Shown here piece after piece: positions 2,291 through 49,184 of a stretch of 64,000 nucleotides of DNA. A program made the translations under genes and the position numbers. Every line of letters starts with the position of its first letter. The first letter of the stretch is position 1. The stretch spans positions 8,920 to 72,919 of the forward strand of contig JAKAHY010000002.1 in assembly GCA_021814695.1 (NCBI GenBank), given 5' to 3'. The notes below the pieces were generated by a model. The model searched no databases and was not told the origin of the DNA. It was given only the letters and a program-made list of their open reading frames with translations. This stretch comes from a bacterium. Its GTDB lineage: Bacteria; Patescibacteriota; Minisyncoccia; UBA6257; JAGOQP01.

Positions 2291-2530
2291 CTAAACTAAA
2301 TGCTTGTTTCTAAAAGCTATTCCCGAACCACTTTTCAGATATTTTTCAAAGTTGATCGCCTGTTCCTTGTTATGAAAAGTGCAGTGCCAAGCAATAATAA
2401 ATGGCGCTCTACTTGAGCTATATTTGGAACCATAACTATTATGTTCCAATAGTCTTTTCTTAATATCAATTGTGATGCCCGTATAGAAACTCCCATCTTT
2501 TAAACTGCGAAGAATATAGACAAAATACAT
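2291..2530 (-). CDS. GIY-YIG nuclease-domain protein (small stand-alone UPF0213/YhbQ-like)
   Basis: 79 aa; the YFVYILRSLKDGSFYTGITIDIKKRLLEHN motif matches the GIY-YIG core. Confidence 0.85.
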   Translation of the reverse strand: MYFVYILRSLKDGSFYTGITIDIKKRLLEHNSYGSKYSSSRAPFIIAWHCTFHNKEQAINFEKYLKSGSGIAFRNKHLV

Positions 2531-2597
2531 ATTATCTATAATTATATGGCCCTCCTTCGCATAAAGCTACGGAGGACTCACTACTCGCACCATAAAA

Positions 2598-2626
2598 CTC
2601 CCCAGATGGGGAGTTTTATTGCAATG
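2598..2626 (-). terminator. Terminator downstream of tmRNA
   Basis: AAAACTCCCCA-tc-TGGGGAGTTTT, perfect 11 bp stem followed by TAT. Confidence 0.5.
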
Positions 2627-3426: not shown

Positions 3427-3470
3427 CTGTTTATTTATGATAGTGCCTTGTGGGATTTTTTTGCAAGCGA

Positions 3471-3481
3471 TGTGATATAAT
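3471..3481 (+). promoter_or_regulatory. Extended -10 promoter TGTGATATAAT. The same element precedes the genes at 5697, 8397 and 52626, all with short SD-less leaders
   Basis: Identical 11-mer at 3471, 5688, 8367 and 52583; variants at 10652 (ileS) and 18999 (ppsA). Confidence 0.5.
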
Positions 3482-3498
3482 GAAACAAATAAAAAACT

Positions 3499-5643: not shown

Positions 5644-5656
5644 AAATTTAAAATAA

Positions 5657-5686
5657 AGCCCCCTGTAAATACAGGGGGCTTTTTGA
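5657..5686 (+). terminator. Rho-independent terminator
   Basis: AGCCCCCTG-taaata-CAGGGGGCT followed by TTTTT. Confidence 0.6.
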
Positions 5687-5696
5687 ATGTGATATA

Positions 5697-8321: not shown

Positions 8322-8330
8322 TAATTTGAA

Positions 8331-8360
8331 ACAATCCCCCTAGCTGGGGGATTTTTTTGC
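8331..8360 (+). terminator. Rho-independent terminator
   Basis: ATCCCCCTAG-CTGGGGGAT followed by TTTTTTT. Confidence 0.6.
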
Positions 8361-8396
8361 AAGCAATGTGATATAATAAAACAAATAAAAATAACC

Positions 8397-10580
8397 ATGA
8401 AAAAATATTCATTAATTGTGATTATCTTACTTGTTGTTGCAAGTATAGGGATTACCGCTATCTTTTCAAGTCAAGTGTCGATAACCGGATTTCTTTTGAG
8501 CGTTTACTCAACTGTTTCGGGGAGCAATCAAATACAGAGAGTAAATGCACAAACGACAGGCCAAGGAACCATATTATTCCAAGGCCAATTCGGTCATCTT
8601 GAATCGACCGGAAAGGTCACTACCGGAATTTCGGGCTTATCCGGACTTCCGGTGATGAAATTTGTTAAAGACCGTGACCTATCTAGCGATGAAAAAAATC
8701 AGATTAGAGTGGATGTTATTGAACATAACACTCCTTTTGAATTTGTAGTTGCAAAAAATATTTCGCTTGGAGAGGGTGTTAATTTTAATATTCCCGTAGG
8801 TTCGACATATAGATATAGTTTTTATGTTCACCCCGACTCGATTCCCTCCGGATGGGTTTATTATTCCGGTTGTTTAGAGACCGATGGGAATGTTTCGGTA
8901 CTGGCCGGTCAGCAAAGTACTTGCAGCATAGGATTTTATTTAAAGCCCGAAACAATCTCACCCCCTCCGGTCACATCAACATCTACGATCACGTCTACTC
9001 CTTCGGTAGGTGTTTCGGGAACTGTTGTCGGTGAAGATGCCAGCGCAGGATCGTTGCAGTTTGTAAAAAACGTTTTGGATTTAAGCTCACAAAGAAAGGG
9101 CATTATTTATGGAGTTTTGGACGCAAGAACCGTTAATTTGTATGGAAAAAATCTTCTGATAGTTGCTAGAGGTGGAGCTTACTCTGCTACCACTCCAACC
9201 TGGCATATGCTTGTTTATGATATAACCGATCCGCTTGCCCCGGTTCTTTTGAAGGATAATGATATGTCCGGAAGTGGCATAATCTATAGTTCTCCAATGA
9301 CCGGTTTGGCAGTGCTTGATGGCTTTAATTATGTATTTGTCCGTGGAAATGTCGGTTACGGTTCGTTTAAAATTAATCAGGACGGAACTGCGTCTCTTGT
9401 GAAAAGCTATAAATATTCTGAAGTTCAGCAGATACAGACAGATTTAATCAGGGGATTGTTCAACGGTCTGGATGGAAATATATACGGCTACGGAGGGTTT
9501 GTGCAGGATGGAGGACTCGTGCTTTATAACGTTTCCGATCCCGCTAATATTATTCAAGTTGGAACGTATACTAATGGTCTTGAACCAGCGATTGCCATCT
9601 ATGGACAAATTGGATTGAATCGCCAGAGCACTTGGGGCGTTGTTAAAGAAGGAGGCAAACTTTATCTTATTGCTCATGCGGACCAGTTGGTTCTGCGCCT
9701 TCATACGGATTATGATGGAATGATTTATGTTTTTGATGTGTCCAATCCGGCAAGTCCGCAGCTTTCACATATCTATAAAATGTCCAGCTCCTTTAATCAC
9801 CTTCCTTCCGATATGACTTCGTATGAGAAGATGTTTCTTTACGGAGGAGAAGCTAATATATCGGTTGATCCAATATCAAATAGAGTATTTGATTTTTACA
9901 GAACGGTTTTTGATTGGCAGGGACCCAATCAGCTTAAGATAAAAGACATTCCTAAAGGAGCCTTGTTTCGTTATAGAAATGGAATAGCCGTTCTTTCAAT
10001 AGGAATCGATGGTTCTTTGAAATCAAGTTCCAGTAACATATTATTGTGCGAAAGAATAGCCATTCAAGATAATGGGACGTCAGGCGAAGATAAATGTGAT
10101 ACAAAGAGTCCCGAAACGGTTGGGGGATATTATAGTTCCAGTCTTTATGGAAACAGGAATCCTCAAGAAAATTATAACGGAGTATTTCTTCTTGGCGACG
10201 TGAATAATGTCGGACATGTAGGGCTGTTAAAAAGCGATGGTAGTTTTGTTATCATACCCGATCCAACCGGAGAAATGCTTAAATTCAAATCTGTCTTGGC
10301 TGACCCGTCGTATTATTCCGATCCTGGTTTTCGTTCGTCTCCAATCAATGGCATTGTCACTCAAGTTGATAGCAAAACCTTTGCAATATTTCAGATTGAT
10401 AATTATTCCATAAGTGTTACAAAGCTAAATCTATCACAATCCATAACGAGCGTAACACAAAAATCTTCGCCACCTACCACAAATGCCCCTAGTTCATTAA
10501 ATACATCATCTCCTACTCAGACTCCATTTTCCTTCAGCTCGCTCCTGAGAATATTTCAGAGGGTGTTCAATAGTCAGTAA
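8397..10580 (+). CDS. Secreted LVIVD-repeat protein, paralog 3 (close duplicate of paralog 1)
   Basis: The N-terminal 100 aa are nearly identical to the 3499 protein; tail PFSFSSLLRIFQRVFNSQ. Confidence 0.7.
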   Translation: MKKYSLIVIILLVVASIGITAIFSSQVSITGFLLSVYSTVSGSNQIQRVNAQTTGQGTILFQGQFGHLESTGKVTTGISGLSGLPVMKFVKDRDLSSDEKNQIRVDVIEHNTPFEFVVAKNISLGEGVNFNIPVGSTYRYSFYVHPDSIPSGWVYYSGCLETDGNVSVLAGQQSTCSIGFYLKPETISPPPVTSTSTITSTPSVGVSGTVVGEDASAGSLQFVKNVLDLSSQRKGIIYGVLDARTVNLYGKNLLIVARGGAYSATTPTWHMLVYDITDPLAPVLLKDNDMSGSGIIYSSPMTGLAVLDGFNYVFVRGNVGYGSFKINQDGTASLVKSYKYSEVQQIQTDLIRGLFNGLDGNIYGYGGFVQDGGLVLYNVSDPANIIQVGTYTNGLEPAIAIYGQIGLNRQSTWGVVKEGGKLYLIAHADQLVLRLHTDYDGMIYVFDVSNPASPQLSHIYKMSSSFNHLPSDMTSYEKMFLYGGEANISVDPISNRVFDFYRTVFDWQGPNQLKIKDIPKGALFRYRNGIAVLSIGIDGSLKSSSSNILLCERIAIQDNGTSGEDKCDTKSPETVGGYYSSSLYGNRNPQENYNGVFLLGDVNNVGHVGLLKSDGSFVIIPDPTGEMLKFKSVLADPSYYSDPGFRSSPINGIVTQVDSKTFAIFQIDNYSISVTKLNLSQSITSVTQKSSPPTTNAPSSLNTSSPTQTPFSFSSLLRIFQRVFNSQ

Positions 10581-10668: not shown

Positions 10669-13600
10669 ATGTTGAGAAATCTTAAACACTTTAATCCGCC
10701 GGAAATTGAGGAAAAAGTTTTACAGCTTTGGAAAGAAAAAGGGATATTTCAAAAAACACTCAAAGTTCCAAAAGGAAAAAAGGCCCTGCCTACCGGCAGG
10801 CAGGCAAAAATATTTCGGTTTTGGGAAGGTCCACCGACAGCCAATGGCCGTCCCGGAATTCATCATATTTTAGCCCGTTCTTTTAAGGACGTTGTTTTGC
10901 GTTTTAAAACGATGCAAGGGTATACGGTTCCCCGTAAGGGTGGTTGGGATACTCATGGATTGCCCGTTGAAATCCAGGTTGAAAAGCAGCTCGGATTTAA
11001 AACAAAAAAAGATATAGAAGATTACGGAATAGCCGCATTCAACCAAAAATGTAAAGAATCAGTCTGGCTTTATCAAAGCGAATGGGAAAAATTGACCGAA
11101 CGCATGGGTTTTTGGCTGGATTTGAAAAATCCTTATGTCACATACCACAAAGATTACATAGAGTCGCTTTGGTGGATCATCAAACAAGTTTGGGATAAAG
11201 GGTTGATGTATCAAGGGCATAAAGTGGTTCCTTGGTGTACTCGCTGCGGGACAGCTCTTTCTTCCCATGAATTGGCTCAAGGATACAAAGAGCTTACCGA
11301 TACTTCTGTTTACATAAAATTTAAACTTCTTCCAAAACAAAAAATCGGTTCTTTTATAACCGATGATAAAACATACATCTTATCCTGGACGACGACTCCT
11401 TGGACTTTGCCCGGAAACGTCGCTTTGGCAGTCGGAAATAAAATCAAATATATTGCGGCAAAAATCGGAGGAGAGACTTTTATTATTGCGGAAGATCTTG
11501 CCGGATCGGTTTTGGGATCGGAAAATCATAAAGTTATCAATGAATTTAAAGGCGAGTCGATTTCAGGGAAAGAATACGCCCCACTTTTTGAAATTGCGGC
11601 ATTAAAAAAACCGGAATCGTACAAGGTATATCCGGCTAAATTTGTGACAACCACCGATGGAACGGGGGTGGTGCACACGGCCGTAATGTACGGAGAGGAC
11701 GATTATAACCTGGGAAAAGAAGTCGGACTTCCTCAGCATCATACGGTTACCGAACAAGGAACTTTCACAAAAGACGTTAAAGGATTTGAAGGGATGTACG
11801 TCAAAGCCAAGGAGACCGAGGATAAGATACTAGATTATCTAAAGAAAAATAATTTCCTTTTGCAAACACAGGCTTATACCCATGAATATCCTCATTGCTG
11901 GAGATGTGGAACTCCGCTTTTGTATTACGCGCGCAGTTCATGGTTTGTAGCGATGTCGAAACTGAAAGATAATCTGATCGAAAGCAACCAGGGAACCAAC
12001 TGGGTTCCGGCACATATCAAAGAGGGCAGATATGGAGAATGGCTCTCCGAAATTAAAGATTGGAATTTTTCACGGGAAAGATATTGGGGCACCCCACTGC
12101 CGATCTGGACGTGCGAGAATTGTGGAAACCATAAAGCTGTTGGAAGTTATAAAGAGCTTTCGGAACATCTTCCTTCTAGTACCAACAGATATATTCTTGT
12201 CCGTCATGGAGAAGCGGGGCAAAATGTTTCCAATATAATCAACTGCGACCCCAAAGATAAGGATAAATACCCGTTAACAACCAATGGAATAATCCAGGCG
12301 AAGAGAACTTCCCTGAGCCTCAAGAAAAAAATAAAAAAAATAGACGCGATTATCTCGTCGGATTTTATTCGGACAAAGGAAACCGCAAAAATTATCGGCG
12401 ATGAATTTGGAATAAAGAAAATAATCACCGATCCGCTTTTGAGGGAAGTTAACATGGGAGATTTTAACGGGGACAATGTTTCTCGTTACCACGAGTACTT
12501 TTCTTCGCTTGAAGAAAAATTTATGAAACGGACCCCTAACGGAGAAAACCTCAGAGATCTGGCCGCAAGAAGCTACGATTTTATACAAAAATGTGAAAAA
12601 AAATACAGCGGGAAAACTATTGTTGTGGTAGGGCATGAATATCCGCTGTGGATGGCGGAGACCGTTCTTTCTGGATGGAGTCAGGAAGAATCGGTGTCGG
12701 AAAAAGAAAAAAGAGGTCCCGATTTTATAGAAGTCGGAGGATTTGATTCCGTTACTTTTGTTCCGGCATCAAGAGATGAACAGGGAATCTGTGATTATCA
12801 TAAGCCATATGTGGATTCAATCAGCATCCCTTGCGAAAAATGCGGAAAAAAGATGAATCGAGTTAAAGAAGTTGCCGACGTATGGTTTGATTCGGGGTCA
12901 ATGCCATTTGCCCAAGATCATTATCCTTTTGAGAAGGGTGATAAAGTCGGGAAAGCGCCCCAATCGTTTCCGGCCGATTATATCTGTGAGGCAGTCGATC
13001 AGACCCGCGGGTGGTTTTACACTCTTATGGCCGTCTCTACATTATTGGATTATGAAACGCCGTATAAAAACGTCGTTTGCCTAGGGCATATAAACGACAA
13101 GCATGGACAGAAAATGTCCAAATCAAAAGGGAACATTGTTGATCCATGGATGATAATAGATAAATATGGCATTGATGCCGTTAGGTGGTATTTTTACACC
13201 GTTAATGCTCCGGGGGAGCCGAAGAATTTTGACGAGAATGAGGTTGCTAAAGTACTGAGAAAATTCAGCATGACTCTTTATAATTCGTTCGCGTTTTTGG
13301 CGCTTTATGGAAAACAGAAGGTAAGTATCCAAAAGAAACCTTCATCGCCGAATATTTTGGACAGGTGGATTTTGGCAAGGCTAAATCAAACAACTGTCGG
13401 AGTTTCGGACAAAATGGACGCATATGATTTCTTGGCTACCGGACAAATAATAGAATCGTTTATTGACGATCTTTCCAGATGGTACATTCGCCGATCGAGA
13501 AAGAGATTCCAAAAAATTTCGGATAAATCGGATTGGGGTACGGCGACCGGTGTTTTGGCGTATGTTTTGGCCGAATTTTCAAAAGTGATCGCTCCCTTTA

Positions 13601-14223
13601 CTCCATTTTTCGCCGAAGCTCTTTACAGATCCATAGCCGAATTTTGTTCGTTTAGCGCAAAAGAATCCGTTCATCTCGAATCATGGCCGGAGGGCAGGGT
13701 TTTTAATGACGATGCGGTTATGTCGGAAGCCATGAAACAGATAAGAGACTACGCCAGTGCTGTTTTGGCAAAAAGAGCCGAAGTTGGAATCAAAGTGCGG
13801 CAGCCTTTGAGCTTGTTGAAAATAAGAAGCATTAAGTCTAAAGAAAAAGACTCTAAACAATTATTAGAAGTGTTAAGGGATGAAGTTAACGTCAAAGAAG
13901 TTGTGATTGATCCAAAAATAGAAAATGAATTTGAGTTGGATATCAACATCACTCCGGAACTTAAAGCCGAAGGAATTTTGAGGGAAATAGCCCGGACAAT
14001 TCAGGAATTGAGACAAAGTTCGGCATGTGTTCCCAAGGATAAAATAGAAGTTCGCATTTCCGGACCTGCCGACATTGAAGCGGTGGTCAAAAACGGACAA
14101 GCCACGCTTTGCCAATACGTTAACGCCAAAAATATTCTTTTCGGTAAGAGCGGTAAATTTGATTCCGAAATTGAAACCAAAATTGATTCGTCAAAAATTT
14201 GGATAGGTTTAAGAAAAATATAA
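10669..14223 (+). CDS. ileS: Isoleucyl-tRNA synthetase (type 2-like) carrying an inserted histidine-phosphatase (PGAM-like) domain
   Basis: HIGH-like GRPGIHH, KMSKS, WCTRCGT and CENCG/CEKCG zinc knuckles. Residues about 505-690 (nt about 12180-12730) contain LVRHGE...VVGHE. Confidence 0.95.
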   Translation: MLRNLKHFNPPEIEEKVLQLWKEKGIFQKTLKVPKGKKALPTGRQAKIFRFWEGPPTANGRPGIHHILARSFKDVVLRFKTMQGYTVPRKGGWDTHGLPVEIQVEKQLGFKTKKDIEDYGIAAFNQKCKESVWLYQSEWEKLTERMGFWLDLKNPYVTYHKDYIESLWWIIKQVWDKGLMYQGHKVVPWCTRCGTALSSHELAQGYKELTDTSVYIKFKLLPKQKIGSFITDDKTYILSWTTTPWTLPGNVALAVGNKIKYIAAKIGGETFIIAEDLAGSVLGSENHKVINEFKGESISGKEYAPLFEIAALKKPESYKVYPAKFVTTTDGTGVVHTAVMYGEDDYNLGKEVGLPQHHTVTEQGTFTKDVKGFEGMYVKAKETEDKILDYLKKNNFLLQTQAYTHEYPHCWRCGTPLLYYARSSWFVAMSKLKDNLIESNQGTNWVPAHIKEGRYGEWLSEIKDWNFSRERYWGTPLPIWTCENCGNHKAVGSYKELSEHLPSSTNRYILVRHGEAGQNVSNIINCDPKDKDKYPLTTNGIIQAKRTSLSLKKKIKKIDAIISSDFIRTKETAKIIGDEFGIKKIITDPLLREVNMGDFNGDNVSRYHEYFSSLEEKFMKRTPNGENLRDLAARSYDFIQKCEKKYSGKTIVVVGHEYPLWMAETVLSGWSQEESVSEKEKRGPDFIEVGGFDSVTFVPASRDEQGICDYHKPYVDSISIPCEKCGKKMNRVKEVADVWFDSGSMPFAQDHYPFEKGDKVGKAPQSFPADYICEAVDQTRGWFYTLMAVSTLLDYETPYKNVVCLGHINDKHGQKMSKSKGNIVDPWMIIDKYGIDAVRWYFYTVNAPGEPKNFDENEVAKVLRKFSMTLYNSFAFLALYGKQKVSIQKKPSSPNILDRWILARLNQTTVGVSDKMDAYDFLATGQIIESFIDDLSRWYIRRSRKRFQKISDKSDWGTATGVLAYVLAEFSKVIAPFTPFFAEALYRSIAEFCSFSAKESVHLESWPEGRVFNDDAVMSEAMKQIRDYASAVLAKRAEVGIKVRQPLSLLKIRSIKSKEKDSKQLLEVLRDEVNVKEVVIDPKIENEFELDINITPELKAEGILREIARTIQELRQSSACVPKDKIEVRISGPADIEAVVKNGQATLCQYVNAKNILFGKSGKFDSEIETKIDSSKIWIGLRKI

Positions 14224-29233: not shown

Positions 29234-30157
29234 ATGCTTTTTTCGCGAATAACAAAAAAAGATATTTTGATATTTATCGTCGTTTTCCTGGTTTTGGGCG
29301 CTATTTTTGTTTTACATAAGCCCACATCGTTTATCGGAGATAATTATGCCGTTGTGGAAAATTCGAGCATCCCCAAACTTCAGGTGGCTACCTCATTTCC
29401 ATTGGCGGCTGATTGGATAAATTCCGTCGGCAAAGACCGGGTTCAGGTACAGGTTTTTGCATCACCCACGGATGATGGGCTGATTCAGTGGCTAAAAAAG
29501 CCCTCTTCGGATGCTCCACAGGAGACCAAAGTTTTTGTTTCTATGGGAAATAATTTTGACCAATGGGCCCAAGAACTGTCCGGGGGAGATCCCAAAATAA
29601 AAATTGATGTTATGATTTTGAGTAATTTTGCGTCTCCGGTTAAAACATATCCTACTTTATCGGGTTCTTCTAAGAACGCTGAAAATTCCTCACCTTACTA
29701 TTGGCTTTCACTTGAGAATGTCCGGGAGTCAGTTCAGGGCATTGCCCGGGAATTTGGAAAAGTTGATGCTGCCGATAGGGAATATTTTATAAACAATGCA
29801 TATGAATATTCTGTCAGACTCGATTCGCTGCTGCACGAAACTGTGGATGTTTTGGGAAGTATCAGAAATACCGCAGTGGCACTTGATGGCGCCAGATGGG
29901 CTCCTTTTGTAGACAGTTTGCAGTTGCGGGTTGTCGGGTTGTTTGATTCAAACTCCACAGAAGACATCAAGGCTATTCTTAAAAAAAATAAAATCACCAC
30001 AGTTGTGACCGATAGCGATTCGAACGGCCGATTTTTGGAACCGGCATTATCCGGGACGACCGTATCGGTTGCTGTCATAGATCCCTGGGGACTTAATAGC
30101 AATAACTACGTGGATTTTATGCGCTCTAATATTTCGGAACTGATGAAAGCGCTTTAG
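29234..30157 (+). CDS. TroA/ZnuA-like periplasmic solute-binding protein, divergent. The metal-ligand His residues found in the znuA at 43054 appear to be replaced
   Basis: VATSFPLAADWINSVGKD..VQVFASPTDD and SPYYWLSLENV align to the ZnuA IATTIFPV...VVPPGASPH and DPHYWLALNN. Confidence 0.45.
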   Translation: MLFSRITKKDILIFIVVFLVLGAIFVLHKPTSFIGDNYAVVENSSIPKLQVATSFPLAADWINSVGKDRVQVQVFASPTDDGLIQWLKKPSSDAPQETKVFVSMGNNFDQWAQELSGGDPKIKIDVMILSNFASPVKTYPTLSGSSKNAENSSPYYWLSLENVRESVQGIAREFGKVDAADREYFINNAYEYSVRLDSLLHETVDVLGSIRNTAVALDGARWAPFVDSLQLRVVGLFDSNSTEDIKAILKKNKITTVVTDSDSNGRFLEPALSGTTVSVAVIDPWGLNSNNYVDFMRSNISELMKAL

Positions 30158-30227
30158 TTTTTATAAAAAAGTTTATTAACATGATGGACTTTTTTTAAAA
30201 ATCACGATAACATAAACTCACAAATTT

Positions 30228-30299
30228 GCGGGTATCGTATAGCGGCTATTATACTTCCTTGCCAAGGAAGAGATACGGGTCCGACTCCCGTTACCCGCT
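30228..30299 (+). tRNA. tRNA-Gly(GCC)
   Basis: Cloverleaf: acceptor GCGGGTA/TACCCGC, anticodon loop TTGCCAA, discriminator T, CCA not encoded. The T-loop TCCGACT is unusual because position 55 is C. Confidence 0.7.
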
Positions 30300-30340
30300 C
30301 AAAAACAAAAATTACCCAAACGGGTAATTTTTGTTTTGGG

Positions 30341-30466
30341 TGTTGACGGGGTAGGATGCGGGGTGGTCGAGGGGCTGCAAGCCCCTCGTGTTGGAAATTA
30401 TTCAAAACCGAGGGTTTTGAAGGAGCGAATATAATGAGCGACGTCCGATTTCCCGTTACCCGCTCA
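30341..30466 (+). repeat. tRNA-trailer mini-element copy E1 (ends with a duplicate of the tRNA-Gly(GCC) 3' end)
   Basis: Contains hairpin CGAGGGGC-tgcaa-GCCCCTCG, then tgttggaaatt, then aaaccgagggtttt, ending in tcccgttacccgctca. Confidence 0.6.
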
Positions 30467-30502
30467 AAAACAAAAAGCACCACAAGGGTGTTTTTTGTTT
30501 TC

Positions 30503-30650
30503 TGTCCGCCCGGAAGGGAGTCTCACGTCGCTCCGACATTGCGTCGGAGCTCCCAAGACACCCTCGGTTTCTTGACGCTCCTCCGGAGCTTTTTCCTACA
30601 CGGGAGATTAAGCATCTCCCGACCCCTCTCTATTCAATTCCTTGTTGACG
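30503..30650 (-). repeat. tRNA-trailer mini-element copy E2 (minus orientation; ends with a tRNA-Lys 3' end duplicate)
   Basis: Minus strand: aattgaatagagaggggtcgg, hairpin GGAGATGCTTAATCTCC, cgtgtaggaaaaag, cgtcaagaaaccgagggtgtcttggg, then gtgagactCCCTTCCGGGCGGACA. Confidence 0.6.
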
Positions 30651-30689
30651 AACAAAACAAAAAATATTCACAAAGGATATTTCTTATTT

Positions 30690-30826
30690 TGTCCGCCCGG
30701 AAGGGAATCTCACGTCGCTCCGACCTTGCGTCGGAGCTCCTTAAAACCATTCGGTTTTAATATTTCCTCCACGGAAAACCTTCGGTTTCCCGACCCCATC
30801 CGATTTGATTCCTTTACTGACGAATA
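30690..30826 (-). repeat. tRNA-trailer mini-element copy E3 (minus orientation; ends with a tRNA-Lys 3' end duplicate)
   Basis: Minus strand: ggaatcaaatcggatggggtcgg, hairpin GGAAACCgaaGGTTTTCC, gtggaggaaatat, hairpin TAAAACCgaatGGTTTTA, then gtgagattCCCTTCCGGGCGGACA. Confidence 0.6.
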
Positions 30827-30865
30827 TAAAACAAAAAGCACCACAAGGGTGTTTTTTGTTTTCTG

Positions 30866-30938
30866 TCCGCCCGGAAGGGATCGAACCTTCGACCGTCTCC
30901 TTAAGAGGGAGCTGCTCTACCAGCTGAGCTACGGGCGG
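30866..30938 (-). tRNA. tRNA-Lys(CTT)
   Basis: Minus strand: CCGCCCGTAGCTCAGCTGGTAGAGC...CTCTTAA...GGTTCGATCCCTTCCGGGCGGA; anticodon CTT. Confidence 0.85.
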
Positions 30939-30978
30939 TACGAAACCATTCTGCCATCAAAAAAATAATTTTGCAATC

Positions 30979-31920
30979 TTATGGCTGAAAAATCGGTTGG
31001 GTTTGTCCATCAATTGAAAGCGTTATGGATTTTATTGTTGGAAATTGAAGGAGTGTTTGTTTTATTTGTGCCACACGCATTGCCATGGAACATGAACCGC
31101 CCCCAGATTCTGTTAGCGAATTAAAATCGGCATGCGCATTGTCGTTGCTGTCTATGGAAAGAGAATTTAAATCAGAACCTGGTGGCAAGGAGCTTGTATA
31201 TCCGGAATCACTTTCGTCTTGAGTTGGCCCGGCAAAAAGCAATTCCAGTGCTGCCGTCGCTATTTTGGGAGTGGTTATTATCTGTCTTTCTACGGGAACA
31301 ACTTCTTTGCAGGTTTTTTCCGGCTTTATTTTATTGTTGGCAAAATAAACCTTGATTGAAACGAATTCCGGCATGGACGATTTGGAAGAGCTTACTTGTA
31401 AAGATTGGATAATTTTTAATGATTCATCAACCGGTTTCTTCAGATGAGCAATGACAAAACCGGGTGTTTGGGCAAAAATTATCCATTCGTCGGTAATATT
31501 TGAATAAGTAGCAACATCATTCGTCTTATAAGAAAAATTATTTAAAGAAGGTAAACAATCCGGACATTGTGACTTATATTGATTTTCCCAAAAATCTTTT
31601 GCCGAAGGGAAACCGGCAGCACCGTTATAGAAAAAAGAAACCGTATTTATCTGATTATTTGAAAGATTTTCTATGGTAACAAGCGATGGCAATGTAACTT
31701 TTGACTTAAGAGAAAATTTATCTTTGGGGTATGAAAATTGGTAAGCGATATTTTGAAAATCGCCTTCATATCCGACAACGTAAGAGTTTGAGAAGGTTGC
31801 CAGTTCCGGAGAAGGAGATGGGGCATTAACGGTTGAAATGGGATTATTTTTTATGAATCCAAAATAAGCGGCTATTGTCGCCAATAAAAATAATAAAATA
31901 AAAATAATTGTTTTCTTCAT
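30979..31920 (-). CDS. Secreted GerMN-domain protein (lipoprotein-like)
   Basis: Signal peptide; the C-terminal region VYFANNK...VPVERQI...AALELLFAGPT resembles a GerMN domain. Confidence 0.45.
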   Translation of the reverse strand: MKKTIIFILLFLLATIAAYFGFIKNNPISTVNAPSPSPELATFSNSYVVGYEGDFQNIAYQFSYPKDKFSLKSKVTLPSLVTIENLSNNQINTVSFFYNGAAGFPSAKDFWENQYKSQCPDCLPSLNNFSYKTNDVATYSNITDEWIIFAQTPGFVIAHLKKPVDESLKIIQSLQVSSSKSSMPEFVSIKVYFANNKIKPEKTCKEVVPVERQIITTPKIATAALELLFAGPTQDESDSGYTSSLPPGSDLNSLSIDSNDNAHADFNSLTESGGGSCSMAMRVAQIKQTLLQFPTIKSITLSIDGQTQPIFQP

Positions 31921-32149: not shown

Positions 32150-33643
32150 ATGGATACTAACCTGAAAATTCCCAAAGAAATTTTAGAAATAGTAGGAACG
32201 CTCGGAAAAGCGGGTTTTGAGGCATATCCGGTAGGAGGATGTGTTAGGGATTTACTTATTAAAAAAGAACCTAAAGATTGGGATGTTGCCACCAATGCCA
32301 GACCAGAGGAAATCCAAAAAATATTTCCGGATAGTGTTTATGAGAATAATTTTGGCACTGTTGGAATCAAAACCAGATCCGATGAATCATCCTTAAAAAT
32401 CGTTGAGGTTACTACATTCAGAATTGAAGGGGGGTATAGCGATAGCCGTCACCCGGATTTGGTTAAATTTGCGGACAATTTACAAGACGACCTTTCCAGG
32501 CGTGACTTTACAATAAATGCGCTTGCATTGGAAATTCAAAATGAAAATATCAGAAATAAAAATAGTAATCAAAAATTCAAAATTATTGATCCGTATGAAG
32601 GGGGGACGGATATAAAGAATAAAATCATTAAAGCCGTAGGAGACCCGAATAAAAGGTTTGGAGAGGATGCTTTAAGAATGCTTAGAGCTGTCAGACTTGC
32701 TTGTCAGCTTGAGTTTGATATAGAGAAAAAAACGGAAGAAGAGATAAGGGAAAATGCTCACCTACTCAAAAAAATATCTAAAGAAAGAATAAGGGATGAA
32801 TTTTCTAAAATCATAATGACCGATTATGCCGAGCGGGGAGTTCGAATGCTCCAAAATCTTGGATTGATGAAATTTATTATCCCCGAGTTAATTGAGGGCG
32901 TCGGCGTTGCACAAAATAAACACCATATTTATACGGTTTGGGAACATAACGTTTTGGCATTGGGATACTCTGTTGCCAAGAGATATTCGTTTGAAGTCAG
33001 ATTGGCATCTCTTTTGCACGATGTCGGCAAACCGAGAACAAAACAAGGAGAGGGGCCCGATTCCACTTTTTATCAGCATGAATATGTCGGGGCCAAGATG
33101 ACAAGAAAAATTTTGGAAGATCTTAAATTTCCAAAACACATTGTTGATTATGTAACTCATCTGGTTAAATCACATCTTTTTTATTACAATGTCGGCGAAG
33201 TAACCGAGGCCGGAGTCAGAAGATTTTTGGCCAGAGTTGGACCGGAAAATGTTGACGACCTTATAAAGGTCAGAGAGGCGGACAGAATCGGTTCGGGCGT
33301 CCCCAAAGCATTCCCTTATAAATTGAGACATCTCCTTTTTATGATAGACAAGGTTAGACGGGACCCGATTTCTCCAAAAATGCTTAAAATAAACGGCAAT
33401 GATTTGATGAAAATCCTATCAATCGATCCCGGACCAAAAATCGGCCACATTCTCAATGCTCTTTTGGAAGAAGTTATTGAAGACCCGGAAAAAAACTCAA
33501 AAAAATATCTGGAAAAAAGAGCCGGAGAGTTAAATCGGCTTTCTGTTAAAGAACTTGAAAATTTGAGAAAAAGAGCAGAGAATGCCAAAGAAGAATTTGA
33601 GACGGGTATTGAAAAGGAAATGAAGCGCAGACATCACGTTTAA
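32150..33643 (+). CDS. cca: CCA-adding tRNA nucleotidyltransferase with HD domain
   Basis: GGCVRDLLL nucleotidyltransferase head and LLHDVGK HD domain. Consistent with the tRNA genes here lacking an encoded CCA. Confidence 0.85.
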   Translation: MDTNLKIPKEILEIVGTLGKAGFEAYPVGGCVRDLLIKKEPKDWDVATNARPEEIQKIFPDSVYENNFGTVGIKTRSDESSLKIVEVTTFRIEGGYSDSRHPDLVKFADNLQDDLSRRDFTINALALEIQNENIRNKNSNQKFKIIDPYEGGTDIKNKIIKAVGDPNKRFGEDALRMLRAVRLACQLEFDIEKKTEEEIRENAHLLKKISKERIRDEFSKIIMTDYAERGVRMLQNLGLMKFIIPELIEGVGVAQNKHHIYTVWEHNVLALGYSVAKRYSFEVRLASLLHDVGKPRTKQGEGPDSTFYQHEYVGAKMTRKILEDLKFPKHIVDYVTHLVKSHLFYYNVGEVTEAGVRRFLARVGPENVDDLIKVREADRIGSGVPKAFPYKLRHLLFMIDKVRRDPISPKMLKINGNDLMKILSIDPGPKIGHILNALLEEVIEDPEKNSKKYLEKRAGELNRLSVKELENLRKRAENAKEEFETGIEKEMKRRHHV

Positions 33644-35509: not shown

Positions 35510-35544
35510 AAATCCCATTCGGGATTTTTATTTTTGCTTGGACT

Positions 35545-35681
35545 CCGGAAATTGAATCAGAAGGGGTCGGGGAACCTGTGGTTCCCCGTGTAGGAAAAAG
35601 TCCGCCCTGGGCGGACGTCAAGAAACCGAGGGTGTTTTGGGAGGAGTGAAACGACGACGTGAGATTCCCGGCAGCCCGACG
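35545..35681 (+). repeat. tRNA-trailer mini-element copy E4 (ends with a tRNA-Pro 3' end duplicate; followed by a second terminator and a 5' fragment of another copy at 35730-35748)
   Basis: ggaaattgaatcagaaggggtcgg, hairpin GGAACCtgtGGTTCC, cgtgtaggaaaaag, hairpin GTCCGCCctgGGCGGAC, cgtcaagaaaccgagggtgttttggg, ending gtgagATTCCCGGCAGCCCGAC. Confidence 0.6.
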
Positions 35682-35772
35682 AAAATAAAATTCCCCTTTA
35701 GGGGAGTTTTATTTATGTTTGGGTTTCAGGGGAATTGAATCGGAAGAAAAATGTTCTTAAATTTGATATACT

Positions 35773-37355: not shown

Positions 37356-37462
37356 AAATTATAGTGACATTGCATGAGTGTGGGTTCGGTTCTCGCTGGA
37401 TCTACCAAAAACAAATCCCCCCTTAGTTATCTAGTTGACTTTCGGATAACTTTTGATTACTA

Positions 37463-46993: not shown

Positions 46994-47125
46994 AAGACCT
47001 CCTTGTGATAAGTTCTAACGGGTAGTATCTGATATTTTTGGATATGAATCAAGTATTTGGTCCAATTGTTTATCGGGATAATTATTGACATTATTCTTTT
47101 ATAGTGGTATAAAATAATCAGCAGC

Positions 47126-47791
47126 TTGATTCAAATACGGCTGCGGAAAAGGACGGACATACACATGTCCGAAGAAGCTATCCGCATCAGCAACACCGCA
47201 GGGATTTTTCTGGTTATTCTTCCATCTTCAGGCGAGACGGAAGTGAAGACGGTATTGGTATTGGGAAAGTCTGAATTGGTAGAGCAGAGCAACGGCACTG
47301 TTTTTTCCAAGCCGCGCATGTGGGGATTGCCCAAGGGAAGGATGAAGTCCGATACGGATGAAGACGTTGTCACAACCGCCCTCCGAGAGTTTCAGGAGGA
47401 AACCGGAATCACCGAGATTTCCAAGGGTATGATCAATTGGGAGTTGTCCGTAACGGAGAAGGAATGTTCACTCCGTCCGGGCTCAGACGAACATCACAAG
47501 ACGTTTTTCCTGGTGGTTATGAAGAAAACGCCCAAGATCGGAATTCCTGTCGATCCCAAGATTGAGAAAGCCCAGATTTTTTCCATCAGCGAACTTCCCA
47601 TCACGGGCGGAACAAAGTTGGCCAAAAGTCATGCTCGGGCCATGAGCGCACTTCTGGAAAAGTGCCGGCCACAGCTTTTGGCAGAAGGCGTCCATCCCAT
47701 GGTTTTGGCTATGTGCGAGGTAGGCCTGTCCCACAAGCCGGGAGAAAATAAACCCGATGACGAAAAGAACAATTTCCGCAATCAGCGGTAA
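47126..47791 (+). CDS. NUDIX hydrolase (GC-richer than its surroundings)
   Basis: Nudix box GLPKGRMKSDTDEDVVTTALREFQEETGI. The start may be the ATG at 47164. A TTGACA-17-TATAAA promoter lies at 47089-47117. Confidence 0.75.
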   Translation: MIQIRLRKRTDIHMSEEAIRISNTAGIFLVILPSSGETEVKTVLVLGKSELVEQSNGTVFSKPRMWGLPKGRMKSDTDEDVVTTALREFQEETGITEISKGMINWELSVTEKECSLRPGSDEHHKTFFLVVMKKTPKIGIPVDPKIEKAQIFSISELPITGGTKLAKSHARAMSALLEKCRPQLLAEGVHPMVLAMCEVGLSHKPGENKPDDEKNNFRNQR

Positions 47792-47839
47792 CTCCGAGCA
47801 TGTCTCGGAGATTTTTTTAATCAAAAAATAATATTTGAA

Positions 47840-47960
47840 AATATCCCGACAAGTGAGGGGATTTTGTATAGTCCTTCTTCGCATAAAGCTTCGAAGGACA
47901 CTTTTCGTCTGGCTTGCACTTCGTAGCTCGCCAGGGCGAAGAAGTGAGCGGGTAAGGGGA
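47840..47960. repeat. Perfect about 121 bp direct repeat, copy 1 (duplicate of the tRNA-Gly(TCC) 3' end plus about 105 nt of trailer)
   Basis: Identical to 48069-48188. Confidence 0.8.
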
Positions 47961-48068
47961 AGTCTTACGCTCACCCCCGACCCCCGCTTAAGAAACCTTC
48001 GGGTTTCTTACGTCCCTATTTTCCAACACGGGGGTTCGCATTCGACTCCCAAACTCACCCACAAAAAA
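47961..48068 (-). repeat. tRNA-trailer mini-element copy E5 (rearranged family member) sitting between the two 121 bp direct repeats
   Basis: Minus strand carries gtgttggaaaatagg, hairpin GACGTAAGAAACC-cgaa-GGTTTCTTAAGC and gggggtcggggg modules. Confidence 0.5.
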
Positions 48069-48188
48069 ATATCCCGACAAGTGAGGGGATTTTGTATAGT
48101 CCTTCTTCGCATAAAGCTTCGAAGGACACTTTTCGTCTGGCTTGCACTTCGTAGCTCGCCAGGGCGAAGAAGTGAGCGGGTAAGGGGA
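48069..48188. repeat. Perfect about 121 bp direct repeat, copy 2 (overlaps the true tRNA-Gly(TCC) 3' end and trailer)
   Basis: Identical to 47840-47960. Confidence 0.8.
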
Positions 48189-48245
48189 GTCGGACCCCTC
48201 TCATCAGCTTGGAAAGCTGAGGTAATACCGATATACGATACCCGC
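48175..48245 (-). tRNA. tRNA-Gly(TCC)
   Basis: Minus strand: GCGGGTATCGTATATCGGTATTACC TCAGC TTTCCAA GCTGA TGAG AGGGG TCCGACT CCCCT TACCCGC T. Same unusual T-loop as tRNA-Gly(GCC). Confidence 0.7.
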
Positions 48246-48307
48246 TTAATGTGAATAAAGGTAACAAATTTTCTTGATTTTTTCAATAACTCAGGTAATC
48301 TGAGCGT

Positions 48308-48922
48308 ATGTTTTTGGACAGGTTCGATAGATTGCCTAAAAAAATTAGAAGGACCGCATGGGTTGTTATCGGATTGGTGGTTTTGATGTTGATTGCATAT
48401 TTGGCGTGGAGTTACTTCGGTTCCCATGTGCCGGGAGATTTCAACGAGGCCAGGATAGCGGCGTCCGTGGAAGCTAAAACGATTGCCGATACCCTGAAAG
48501 ATTCTCCTGAGAATCTTCAAAAAATACAACAACTTCAGGAAAAGTGGAAAGACGATCAGGCGCTGACACTTTTGGTTGCGGAGTTCCAAAAAAACCAGGC
48601 AGCCAGAGATGCATCGGTTAAACTTGCGGGAGAACTGGAAAGAATGGCTCAGGCCATTCCCGACATTCGTCCCAAAAAATCCGCCGAAAATGCTTTAGTT
48701 GCAATAACTACCGAAACTCAGTTGATTTATAAACTGGTCTCGTTTAATGATGATATGAGTCAGTTGCTTAAGTTGATGCAGGATAAAATTACGAATAAAA
48801 TCTACGGGGTGGATAAAGTAAATCAATTAGTGGATGCCATTAATTCCGAAGTCGATTCGATAAATCAGCTCAATAATCAGTTTGAAGATTATCTGAAAAC
48901 GTTTGACGGGTCGTTTAATTAA
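48308..48922 (+). CDS. Hypothetical membrane-anchored coiled-coil protein
   Basis: N-terminal TM segment; Q/E/K-rich. Confidence 0.4.
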   Translation: MFLDRFDRLPKKIRRTAWVVIGLVVLMLIAYLAWSYFGSHVPGDFNEARIAASVEAKTIADTLKDSPENLQKIQQLQEKWKDDQALTLLVAEFQKNQAARDASVKLAGELERMAQAIPDIRPKKSAENALVAITTETQLIYKLVSFNDDMSQLLKLMQDKITNKIYGVDKVNQLVDAINSEVDSINQLNNQFEDYLKTFDGSFN

Positions 48923-48941
48923 TTTAGGTTTTTATAAAATT

Positions 48942-49014
48942 GGGCCGTTAGCTTAGTTGGTAGAGCGCCTCGTTTGCAACGAGGAGGTCACCGGTTCGAA
49001 TCCGGTACGGTCCA
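48942..49014 (+). tRNA. tRNA-Ala(TGC)
   Basis: GGGCCGTTAGCTTAGTTGGTAGAGC... anticodon loop TTTGCAA, G3:U70, T-loop TTCGAAT. Confidence 0.9.
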
Positions 49015-49060
49015 CATAACAAAAAAATTGCCTAGCGCAATTTTTTTGTTATGATGAATC

Positions 49061-49184
49061 AGGGTCGGTTTGAATATTTAGGGGTCGGGGTATTTGTAAA
49101 TACCCCGAGTAAGAAAATTTGAGAAACCGTGGGTTTCTCACGAACGAATGAAATGAGTGAGGTGAGATTCCGGTACGGTCCACA
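49061..49184 (+). repeat. tRNA-trailer mini-element copy E6 (ends with a tRNA-Ala(TGC) 3' end duplicate)
   Basis: tttgaatatttaggggtcgg, hairpin GGTATTtgtaAATACC, cgagtaagaaaatt, hairpin TGAGAAACCgtgGGTTTCTCA, ...ggtgagaTTCCGGTACGGTCCACA. Confidence 0.6.

Follow-up and report, generated by a model that had tools for sequence, protein, structure and literature searches.

A small structured element matched to the 3' end of tRNA-Gly(TCC): a candidate protein-less mobile element of Patescibacteria

In the window, that is the whole 64-kb stretch of DNA that was analysed, an intact tRNA-Gly(TCC) gene, in which CCA is not encoded, is accompanied on the minus strand by two copies of a long direct repeat with a 105-nt element, E5, between them. 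The features of this locus, with the basis of the assignment in brackets, are the following:

48174/48175-48245, minus strand: tRNA-Gly(TCC), the target gene (ARAGORN; Rfam RF00005, 53.2 bits)
48066-48188, minus strand: direct repeat copy 1, the last 15 nt of the tRNA plus a 108-nt trailer (repeat search)
47961-48065, minus strand: E5, 105-nt element (alignment, blastn, CM, RNAfold)
48041-48062, minus strand: 5' arm of E5 (t'), GTGGGTGAGTTTGGGAGTCGAA (read from sequence; predicted closing helix; family-wide pattern)
47974-48034, minus strand: core of E5 in permuted (type B) order (sequence, fold)
47961-47973, minus strand: 3' junction segment of E5, TGAGCGTAAGACT (alignment with canonical copies)
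47838-47960, minus strand: direct repeat copy 2, a tRNA 3'-end copy (47946-47960) plus the second trailer

The repeat search of the window gave two copies of 123 nt, 100% identical and with a spacing of 228; a match that is perfect over this length excludes chance. The coordinates of the repeat and of the tRNA together indicate that it comprises the last 15 nt of the gene (48174-48188 in copy 1, from the T-loop/T-stem border to the 3' end) and the 108-nt trailer (48066-48173 in copy 1), which ends in a weak hairpin and a T-run. The direct repeats around an insert at this gene, reported in the first-pass annotation, are thus real, and their lengths are corrected here from about 121 to 123 nt for the repeats and from 108 to 105 nt for the insert. 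In the alignment, copy 2 runs on into the same flank as the empty allele described below. Searched as a repeat family with nhmmer, the trailer showed one weak relative only, downstream of the tmRNA.

The predicted fold of E5 has an energy of -57.5 kcal/mol (z=-5.1, RNAfold). Its 5' arm is a degenerate antisense of the 3' part of tRNA-Gly(TCC), the perfect antisense being GCGGGTAAGGGGAGTCGGA, and pairs in the predicted closing helix with the tRNA 3'-end copy at 47946-47960. The core starts with CCCCC (48030-48034), the 3' strand of hairpin H1, and continues with the joint GTGTTGGAAAA, hairpin H3 (TAAGAAACC-CGAA-GGTTTCTTA, 47989-48010) and AGC; it ends with GGGGGTCGGGGG (47974-47985), which includes the 5' strand of H1. 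The junction segment TGAGCGTAAGACT is the counterpart of the ...GAGCGAC-GTGAGAT end in canonical copies. The earlier view of E5 as a rearranged member of a family is borne out, as a CM built from the canonical copies only, with E5 left out, matched it at 47983-48062 (22.1 bits, E=2.9e-5 in 64 kb), and the strands of H1 stand in swapped order. In the same 64 kb the CM found five other copies at E<=1.6e-13 and no further significant match, while a sequence pattern gave five matches in the window against zero expected. All six copies, E5 included, lie behind tRNA genes, and a closing helix of the 5' arm with the gene-end copy is predicted in 6/6 of them and in most armed copies of the family. The canonical copies of the window are:

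30337-30466, plus strand: type A (canonical) copy behind tRNA-Gly(GCC), CM 79.1 bits, ending in the gene-end copy TCCCGTTACCCGCTCA (30451-30466)
30503-30653, minus strand: type A copy distal to tRNA-Lys(CTT), CM 46.2 bits, tRNA 3'-end copy 30503-30519
30690-30827, minus strand: type A copy proximal to tRNA-Lys(CTT), CM 62.6 bits, tRNA 3'-end copy 30690-30706
35536-35680, plus strand: type A copy behind tRNA-Pro(CGG), CM 47.7 bits, tRNA 3'-end copy 35664-35680
49052-49184, plus strand: type A copy behind tRNA-Ala(TGC), CM 70.7 bits, tRNA 3'-end copy 49169-49184

The distal and proximal copies at tRNA-Lys(CTT) are arranged in tandem, with a 53-nt block at 30467-30519 identical to 30828-30880, and the tRNA-Ala(TGC) copy is present in all sister strains.

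The pattern was matched in at least 120 genome stretches, with about 115 real copies among the matches listed, nearly all in Patescibacteria, where the family ranges from Saccharibacteria to Parcubacteria. The core occurs in two circular permutations, the canonical type A and the permuted type B; the type B order of E5 is also found at L062 and L120, and the permuted form in 79 further metagenome contigs. Rfam 15, applied at gathering score to the whole window, reported only tRNAs and the tmRNA, and at E<=10 over 30100-31000 and 47700-48350 the elements stayed uncovered save for chance miRNA/sRNA matches far below the gathering score. A description of the family was not found in the searchable full-text literature; the only related paper concerns group I introns in Patescibacteria tRNAs, which are anticodon-loop introns (PMC13011429). 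The family is apparently undescribed, and it is widespread in Patescibacteria.

The order at the locus is gene...t - X - t' - core - t - Y. Here, t stands for the last 15-40 nt of the gene (in tRNAs it starts at the T-loop border and runs up to the 3' end). X and Y are two alternative forms of the sequence behind the gene (stop codon and tail, terminator or, at E5, the 108-nt trailer), and t', about 16 nt long, is an antisense copy of the stretch that lies across the left edge of t. Owing to this layout the gene stays complete, and an intact target site is regenerated beside the element, which makes tandem arrays possible; such arrays were found at tRNA-Lys in the window and at L012 and L064. 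A same-sense tRNA lies no more than 150 nt upstream of 49 of the 125 type A copies and an opposite-sense one upstream of none, with about 1.5 expected by chance. In armed copies the 5' arm is the antisense of about 16 nt of the upstream gene and the 3' side is a sense copy that reaches the gene end, the gene itself being left intact. Counted from the tRNA 3' end, positions 14-21 show a complementarity of 0.8-0.96 between the 5' arm and the tRNA; positions 1-8 and those from 25 on are at random level. The antisense arm is also present at the protein-gene targets L014, L017, L041 and L107, and the same core, with gene-specific arms, is found at such unrelated hosts as tRNAs, rpsG and rpmG-like, murC-like and gap-like genes. 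Both the antisense target copy in the 5' arm, which is the defining feature, and the protein-gene targets were absent from the first-pass annotation. Neither target arms nor a duplication are present in many copies, among them roughly half of type A and the majority of the stand-alone type B copies. The arm-less stand-alone type B copies adjoin start codons in either orientation, with a GGGGG run 6-12 nt upstream of ATG.

The length of the duplication varies from 13 to 123 nt across the family. In 37 tRNA-linked copies, the sense copy begins 15-18 nt before the tRNA end and forms a perfect block (median 17 nt) that stops at the tRNA end; past that point the sequences are unrelated, with an identity of about 33%. 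At the other loci, the short duplications had previously been taken for diverged, older events of the same kind as that at E5; they are instead perfect, and they are not simply long duplications that have decayed. They may be either maintained by selection or brought in by the element. Long perfect repeats characterise E5 (123 nt), L017 (96 nt), L044 (90 nt) and L077 (64 nt), and in E5, L044 and L077 the 5' arms are imperfect although the direct repeats are perfect. The duplicated protein tails differ almost only by synonymous changes, the ratio of synonymous to other differences, counted by hand, being 8:0 in L014 and 9:1 in L107. At rpsG-fusA it is copy 2 that runs on into the fusA start codon, and terminators differ through the replacement of whole stems. 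X and Y have separate functional histories.

The core is composed of two covarying hairpins, H1 and H3, joined by conserved purine-rich segments. Within H1 and H3, 92.6% of the positions are paired, and 106 double-change cells were counted against 34.6 in shuffles, none of the 500 shuffles reaching 106. Such a core could belong to an RNA-based element that is co-transcribed with its host gene and in which the core acts as a small ribozyme or as the scaffold of a ribonucleoprotein. The 5' arm, being antisense, would then resemble an internal guide sequence, pairing with the gene transcript or with the non-template DNA strand, and the element would spread by target-primed reverse transcription with the 3' arm annealed to the nicked target, which would duplicate the sequence from t to the insertion point. 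Conserved single-stranded joints beside covarying stems are in keeping with this explanation, as are the two permutations of the core, since circular permutation is typical of small self-cleaving ribozymes. Moreover, orientation always tracks the transcription of the host gene and not replication, the hosts are highly expressed genes, and copies inside operons (rpsG-fusA) and tRNA clusters are certainly transcribed, whereas a consensus scan for a promoter of their own gave nothing consistent. The long perfect repeats of the young copies (E5, L017, L044 and L077) also end at the insertion point. However, the core helices show no excess of wobble pairs (G.U 22 versus A.C 27 among about 1900 positions), which is a hint of DNA-level structure; the motif GCGAAGC, which forms an unusually stable DNA mini-hairpin, also recurs. 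In the arms G.T modestly exceeds A.C (64 versus 37), and this leaves room for an RNA role. The RNA-based explanation is further weakened by the lack of a match to any known ribozyme family even at E<=10, by searches that found no reverse transcriptase among the window proteins scanned or near the copies, and by the reported absence of group II introns from Patescibacteria (PMC13011429). It also does not predict that X and Y should be unrelated in most tRNA-linked copies despite a perfect t, unless selection keeps t. On balance, an RNA-based element appears improbable.

The empty site, which the first-pass annotation had suggested seeking, is present in two assemblies, with a single trailer (...GTCGGGATATTTTC|AAATATT...). 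Exactly 228 bp, corresponding to E5 and one copy of the repeat, are present in the window, in ERZ27237554, in ERZ27237538 and in GCA_027423275.1 and absent from GCA_027423305.1 and ERZ27237587, with flanks that are 99.9-100% identical. The existence of sister strains that lack exactly this unit means that the locus is polymorphic. Over 5-6 kb the two empty-site assemblies are identical or 99.9% identical to the window, and one of them was assembled with k=141, a length greater than that of the 123-nt repeat, which makes a simple collapse of the repeat unlikely. An assembly artefact, with the repeat expanded or collapsed, might be suspected from the perfection of the repeat and from the short-k Logan contigs, which break exactly 30 nt into it. 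Nevertheless, at least four independent assemblies show the occupied site and two the empty one, the k of the k=141 assemblies is greater than the repeat length, and one empty-site contig has an unrelated indel upstream of the tRNA, which indicates a distinct strain. Such an artefact is therefore extremely improbable.

The event at E5 had been called a very recent site-specific insertion or duplication. The comparison of assemblies supports the 228-bp unit as a very young, site-specific insertion/deletion polymorphism, and leaves aside the claim of an insertion: the event may have been a gain or a loss, as a deletion between two perfect 123-nt repeats would yield an identical empty allele. Long perfect repeats can also come from gene conversion. 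In a strain at 98.4% identity, the tRNA-Lys array has a different terminator and a different hairpin, which indicates that gene conversion between tandem copies occurs and that a perfect repeat is no proof of a fresh insertion. For the tRNA-Gly(TCC) locus of that strain, exact-protein look-ups returned near-clonal strains only.

Gene conversion in the tRNA-Lys array also fits a non-mobile explanation, in which the family is a conserved cis-acting module at gene 3' ends, such as a DNA structure or an RNA that serves in processing or stabilisation or is associated with a terminator. The duplications and inverted arms would arise, and be made uniform, through template switching at hairpins and gene conversion, and the polymorphism of E5 would be a plain deletion. 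Template switching at quasi-palindromes is an established source of inverted copies of flanking sequence. The paralogues are ancient and structurally constrained, the same tRNA species carry copies in many lineages, and the GGGGG run of the stand-alone type B copies agrees with such a module as well. What this explanation leaves without an account is the sense copy that equals the gene end exactly between unrelated flanks, the synonymous evolution of the displaced protein tails, and the occurrence of one core on unrelated genes with gene-specific arms. Moreover, mobility is at least as good an explanation for near-clonal strains that differ by the gain or loss of exactly one unit. A non-mobile module is thus, in our judgement, also a rather unlikely account of the family.

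The explanation that we favour, at a little short of even confidence, is a mobile element of which E5 would be one copy: small (about 100-150 nt), structured, without a protein of its own and fitted to the 3' end of one particular gene. In its best reading the element would be non-autonomous and would insert itself at the 3' ends of genes, perhaps in the form of a folded single strand. The unit X-t'-core-t would move as a single strand, and the pairing of t' with t would fold it into a hairpin whose stem has the sequence of the target duplex. A trans-acting enzyme that recognises the core would then exchange strands or make staggered cuts at t. The outcome would be the order direct - cargo - inverted - spacer - direct, as CTX-phi leaves at dif, and recombination between the two t(+X) repeats could remove the element precisely. 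At E5, X equals Y, which may reflect an event within one population or the homogenisation of both copies by gene conversion, and the 228-bp difference between sister strains would represent one such gain or loss.

Some observations speak against mobility. A RecA-type deletion between the 123-nt repeats requires no special machinery. The paralogues of a single genome are old, have diverged and differ by the replacement of whole stems; such divergence is more reminiscent of functional RNAs maintained over a long time than of a bursting transposon. The armless copies and the imperfect 5' arms count against mobility as well, and the explanation gives no account of how a new target would be acquired.

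A further-reaching version of the mobile explanation is possible and somewhat unlikely. The family would represent a new class of nucleic-acid-guided mobile element, in which a permutable core of about 70 nt is flanked by an antisense arm that can be programmed for the 3' end of essentially any gene. As part of the same reading, and with the same reserve, the core would be recognised by a host enzyme or would itself be catalytic.

The proposed element shares features with several known systems. As in CTX-phi and IMEX, a folded single strand would carry a stem of two inverted target-like sites and a spacer, the order is direct site - cargo - inverted site - spacer - direct site, the intact target is regenerated, tandem arrays occur, and the enzyme (XerCD at dif for IMEX) is not encoded by the element. 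The two inverted target-like sites able to fold into the target duplex, by which an IMEX is recognised, are found here as the predicted helix and the arm complementarity. An IMEX proper was rejected because it targets dif, whereas here the targets are tRNA and protein-gene 3' ends of unrelated sequence, different for each copy. The unit of 100-230 nt, free of genes and with a conserved structured core as its spacer, also differs from IMEX, and the arbitrary target sequences make the involvement of Xer unlikely.

The likeness to tRNA-targeting tyrosine-integrase elements and CIMEs lies in the insertion at the tRNA 3' part with a replacement 3' end, the intact gene, the start of the repeat at the T-loop and tandem accretion. 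Direct repeats of the tRNA 3' part starting in the T-loop region are the classic signature of tyrosine integrases, among whose elements tandem accretion is known, and here such repeats (123 nt) flank the insert. They could be read as attL/attR scars or as a cis-mobilisable remnant of an integrase-encoding island or prophage at tRNA 3' ends. However, at 105-230 bp the unit is smaller than those elements by two orders of magnitude. No integrase was found among the window ORFs scanned or in the 4 kb around 115 copies, and the 2.9 million viral contigs of IMG/VR contained no family copy. Many different tRNAs and protein genes share one conserved, covarying core, and att scars have no antisense arm. 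Scars of this kind are therefore a very improbable source. A tyrosine-integrase integrative element was likewise rejected, as no integrase was found in the 105-nt element or, among the ORFs scanned, next to it.

IS200/IS605, PATE and REP/RAYT elements resemble the family as small hairpin repeats, oriented to a single strand, that find their target through base pairing by a short guide beside a hairpin and are mobilised in trans. Those elements, however, make no target duplication, have guides of 4-5 nt and follow the replication strand, whereas here the arm is about 16 nt, the duplication 15-123 nt and the orientation that of transcription. IS200/IS605-PATE and REP-RAYT were rejected because duplications are present and because both replication orientations occur in the window under a uniform, monotonic GC skew, orientation following the host gene in 49:0 cases. 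CRISPR-associated transposons and casposons also settle preferentially at the 3' ends of tRNA genes or of other conserved genes, translation-factor loci among them, and spare the gene; casposons make 14-15 bp target duplications, and in the homing of both the element carries a target-matching sequence. They differ in that Cas, Tns and Cas1 and shared terminal inverted repeats are absent here and the matching segment is paired instead of being a free guide. Free-standing homing-endonuclease inserts (Allomyces atp6, fungal rps3) duplicate or replace the gene 3' end. Like the family, they bring a substitute C-terminal coding tail while the displaced original tail stays downstream; they encode an endonuclease, whereas no ORF is present here. 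Hammerhead and twister ribozymes share the helix junction, conserved joining strands, circular permutations and dispersed multicopy occurrence, and the family differs from them in the lack of an Rfam ribozyme match at E<=10, of an inferable cleavage site and of frequent wobble pairs.

Other candidates were also rejected. A MITE does not fit arms that vary with the target and copy it, in place of shared TIRs, or duplications of 13-123 nt that are not of fixed length. A TnpB/Cas12-type guide RNA is contradicted by the absence of an effector gene nearby and by the pairing of the target-identical 3' segment with the 5' arm. A diversity-generating retroelement is contradicted by repeats that either match exactly or show synonymous differences of every kind, with no adenine bias, and by the absence of an RT nearby. 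For a tRNA-like minihelix, arm complementarity is random for the last 8 nt of the tRNA, and protein-gene copies have the same architecture. A group I intron or trans-splicing was considered for the likeness of the arm to an internal guide sequence; no Intron_gpI match was obtained, however, and the core is too small. As regards an enzyme, no recombinase, transposase, including the Y1 (HUH) type, or reverse transcriptase was found among the window proteins scanned (64 kb of genome; Pfam integrase included). The window does contain a small GIY-YIG nuclease at 2291-2530, and nucleases of this type are candidates for the trans-acting factor, as are Xer-like recombinases, HUH/Y1 enzymes, reverse transcriptases and Argonaute-like proteins. 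When 1813 ORFs within 4 kb of 115 copies were clustered all-against-all, no protein family was enriched and only housekeeping families appeared.

If the arms direct integration, the family would represent a very small target-programmable insertion system, with about 100 nt of cis sequence and no cargo genes, and a new way for selfish DNA to live in the essential genes of highly reduced genomes. In the guided reading, integration duplicates the gene end, and essential, highly expressed genes, such as tRNAs and the ribosomal-protein and elongation-factor operons, would thereby be colonised harmlessly. On the same condition, genome engineering would have a direct interest in whatever recognises the core, be it a protein or the core RNA itself. 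In annotation the family gives rise to pseudo-fragments of tRNA 3' ends, to duplicated gene tails and to altered C-termini, and short-k assemblies break at it. Even if it is not mobile, the family, with six copies in 64 kb, is still among the most abundant structured repeats of Patescibacteria.

The repeat search of 47000-49000 returned a sole long repeat, whose two 123-nt copies are 100% identical. The features concerned are as follows.

Features at tRNA-Gly(TCC) and the relative of its trailer
47838-47960 and 48066-48188: direct repeat copies, start-to-start spacing 228 (repeat search)
48174/48175-48245, minus strand: tRNA-Gly(TCC) (ARAGORN and Rfam)
2542-2603, minus strand: trailer relative behind tmRNA (2672-2988), with counterparts at 47864-47930 and 48092-48158

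On the minus strand, the tRNA is followed by a 108-nt trailer ending in a weak hairpin and a T-run, then by the 105-nt insert E5 (48065..47961), after which the last 15 nt of the tRNA are repeated (TCCCCTTACCCGCTC...) and a complete second trailer follows. The first-pass annotation had correctly placed and described an insert between direct repeats here, with lengths slightly different from the 123-nt repeat and 105-nt insert found. Independent assemblies of the same organism were retrieved by exact-protein look-up with two neighbouring genes. The occupied allele was found in ERZ27237554, ERZ27237538 and GCA_027423275.1 (NCBI), all identical to the window through the locus. The empty site, which had been proposed as a check, was found in GCA_027423305.1 (NCBI; 99.93% identical to the window over 5.4 kb) and in ERZ27237587, whose flanks are 100% identical to the window. 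Exactly 228 bp, namely E5 and one repeat copy, are missing from both, with the junction ...GTCGGGATATTTTC/AAATATT... (slash at the join). The ERZ contigs are k=141 assemblies, and ERZ27237587 is a distinct strain because it carries a separate, unrelated indel, 23 nt directly upstream of tRNA-Gly(TCC) being swapped for unrelated AT-rich 95 nt while all else is identical. Therefore, with k beyond the 123-nt repeat length, an assembly artefact is very unlikely and is essentially excluded. A second polymorphism at this locus is thus seen at 48248-48270 of the window, compared with 1603-1697 of stretch L124. The E5 event is very young, because almost no substitutions occur in 6 kb; the tRNA-Ala element next to the locus occurs in every strain compared, occupied or empty. 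The same allele pair would arise by insertion or by deletion between the two perfect repeats. Hence, of the proposed very recent insertion or duplication, the recency is upheld by the perfect repeat and the near-clonal strains, but the event may have been a gain, a loss or a conversion. The trailer has one weak relative, the stretch directly behind tmRNA (nhmmer E=0.006), with which it shares CTTCGCC..GGC..CGTAGTGCAAGC and the hairpin GTCCTyCGwAGCTTTATGCGAAGrAGG. This stretch runs directly into a stand-alone GIY-YIG nuclease gene (79 aa, 2291-2530, minus strand; Pfam E=5e-14). The trailer may be a remnant of a GIY-YIG nuclease cassette of the kind behind tmRNA, and the 79-aa nuclease is a candidate trans-acting factor.

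Similar elements lie in the window behind tRNA-Gly(GCC), tRNA-Lys(CTT) (two, in tandem), tRNA-Pro(CGG) and tRNA-Ala(TGC), and two degenerate patterns from conserved blocks gave 5 matches each, against 0 expected. A covariance model trained on 40 canonical copies, drawn from the window as well as other genomes, found exactly six significant matches in the 64 kb, five with E<=1.6e-13 and E5 with E=2.9e-5, which confirms the suspected membership of E5 in the family. With one genome per GTDB species, the pattern matches at least 120 stretches; the ~115 real copies among the matches listed belong nearly all to Patescibacteria (Parcubacteria/Paceibacterota lineages, Saccharibacteria, Berkelbacteria), and 2.9 million viral contigs yielded zero matches. 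No Rfam 15 family matches the element even at E<=10, and it was not found described in a literature search. It is a Patescibacteria-wide element, the architecture of which fits none of the known families compared here.

The canonical core (type A) starts with a purine-rich joint (GGAGG), GGTC and hairpin H1 (7-9 bp in 110 of 120 distinct copies), continues through the joint GTG(T/G)(A/T)GGAAA, an optional hairpin, hairpin H3 (..AGAAACC-GNRG-GGTTTCT..), GGAG and optional hairpins often with GCGAAGC, and has GAGCGAC as its 3' end. H1 and H3 covary strongly and are 92.6% paired; double-sided changes fill 106 cells compared with 34.6 in shuffles (0 of 500 attain 106), and slid controls are all far below the observed value. 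Wobble pairs show no excess (22 G.U versus 27 A.C in ~1900 paired positions), which is unusual for functional RNA and may point to a role for the helices in DNA or in both strands. E5 has a permuted order (type B): CCCCC (3' strand of H1), GTGTTGGAAAA, H3, AGC and GGGGGTCGGGGG, which contains the 5' strand of H1. Therefore, H1 is open at its loop, and a few nucleotides close the other side of the junction; what had been called a rearranged member is a circular permutation of the core with the H1 strands in swapped order. Type B order also occurs in L062, L120 and 79 metagenome contigs. The majority of type B copies are compact hairpins that stand alone, have generic arms AGAATCCCC...GGGGATTTCT and adjoin start codons or tRNAs in either orientation; a minority (L126, L148, L163, likewise E5) have target-derived arms. 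A start codon very commonly lies 6-12 nt from the end of a stand-alone copy (L125-L203), whichever its side and orientation (e.g., L137 rev. 10365 and 10901, L141, L142, L136, L166), and those adjoining start codons put a GGGGG(A) run at the expected place of the ribosome-binding site.

The core is conserved, covarying and permutable, while the arms and the duplicated gene end are target-specific. Armed copies have a segment of the upstream gene in reverse complement 5' of the core and, 3' of it, a direct copy reaching the gene end. Across 49 tRNA-linked type A copies, 5'-arm complementarity is highest, 0.8-0.96, at positions 14-21 (counted from the tRNA 3' end), is 0.6-0.8 at positions 9-13, and is at random level both at 1-8 and from position 25. 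The direct copy matches perfectly over a block (median 17 nt) that begins 15-18 nt before the tRNA end and stops at that end (median +1), the following 30 nt being only ~33% identical. The left boundary of the duplicated block thus falls within the stretch covered by the antisense arm, and a helix that closes off the core is predicted between the two arms. The E5 repeat, beginning 15 nt before the tRNA end, matches this pattern; GGTCCGACTCCCCTTACCCGC recurs in degenerate antisense form as the 5' arm of E5, GTGGGTGAGTTTGGGAGTCGAA, in which the unusual Gly T-loop is likewise antisense, not sense. The short repeats elsewhere, earlier read as diverged older events, are instead exact gene-end copies of defined extent, not decayed versions. 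Orientation is strict: a same-sense tRNA lies <=150 nt upstream of 49 of the 125 type A copies and an opposite-sense one of 0, and both replication orientations are present among the window elements. A rival reading, in which movement goes through RNA with the 5' arm as a kind of guide, target-primed reverse transcription and perhaps a ribozyme core, would account for this transcription-linked orientation and for the permutations, but it has neither wobble pairs nor a reverse transcriptase in its favor and is considered unlikely.

Several further observations concern the tRNA genes. At 35716-35745, after the tRNA-Pro element and its second terminator, a lone second antisense 5' arm (GTTTGGGTTTCAGGGGAATTGAATCGGAAG) is followed by no core; a tandem copy since lost may have left it behind. 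Downstream of tRNA-Ala(CGC), 37383-37408 (GGGTTCGGTTCTCGCTGGATCTACCA) resembles the T-arm and acceptor 3' strand of another tRNA, with no family core beside it. CCA is not encoded by any element-bearing tRNA gene (30286-30300, 48174-48176, other tRNA ends), and the CCA-adding enzyme gene (32150-33643) adjoins tRNA-Arg(TCG).

The same architecture was found at the ends of rpsG (just before fusA), rpmG-like, murC-like, gap-like, histidine kinase and other genes. At rpsG-fusA (L041, L059, L120), the second tail copy is the original DNA, because it is joined to the fusA start codon, and the first, on the element's side, completes the rpsG reading frame. Differences within tail pairs are almost all synonymous (8 of 8 in L014, 9 of 10 in L107; manual count), and therefore both tails evolved as coding sequence; terminator pairs behind tRNAs differ through whole-stem replacement. 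The two tails have separate functional histories, and presence or absence of one unit is polymorphic among near-clones. The host gene is preserved and an intact target is regenerated, which explains the tandem arrays. In L034 (minus, about 1154), the element sits ~10 codons short of the stop in a murC-like coding region, the first copy has no replacement tail, and the reading frame extends ~28 codons into the element, giving an altered C-terminus.

One bidirectional terminator is shared by the converging arrays behind tRNA-Gly(GCC) and tRNA-Lys, which contain a 53-nt perfect block (30467-30519 = 30828-30880). In the window strain, the tRNA-Lys-side terminator and the proximal element's H4 hairpin duplicate their distal counterparts; a 98.4%-identical strain (L205 3400-4300) has other sequences at these positions, and recent gene conversion between tandem units is therefore indicated. 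This conversion, together with the great age of the paralogues, favors the view that the module is structural and does not move, template switching and gene conversion having shaped it; this view leaves the target-specific arms on unrelated genes unexplained and is considered improbable.

The window is an ordinary Patescibacteria chromosome segment encoding IleRS, PPDK, enolase, iPGM, RNase Y, RuvB, the CCA-adding enzyme, a type IV pilus and ComFC-like competence genes. The isoleucyl-tRNA synthetase (10669-14223, 1184 aa) has a complete histidine-phosphatase domain (PF00300, residues 509-673, E=4e-28) inside its catalytic domain. Three large tandem paralogues (3499-10580; 714, 874 and 727 aa) with weak LVIVD-repeat matches have near-identical upstream regions (e.g., 3449-3495 versus 8345-8391, 94%). 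The neighbours of the 115 copies were only housekeeping families (EF-G, RF2, RecG, FtsH, ribosomal proteins; clustering of 1813 ORFs), and no enzyme is encoded in cis. The window ORFs scanned yielded no integrase, transposase, reverse transcriptase or Cas/TnpB-like protein, and integrase scars are essentially excluded; no consistent promoter was found ahead of the elements. CTX-phi-type integration of a folded single strand, in which a hairpin stem imitates the target duplex, likewise leaves the order direct, cargo, inverted, spacer, direct. By this analogy, the element would integrate as a folded single strand with its hairpin stem mimicking the target, which is tentatively adopted as the best working model, at somewhat less than even confidence. 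Summarizing, we infer present or recent mobility of the family, which would be matched to gene 3' ends and depend for its movement on a factor encoded elsewhere.
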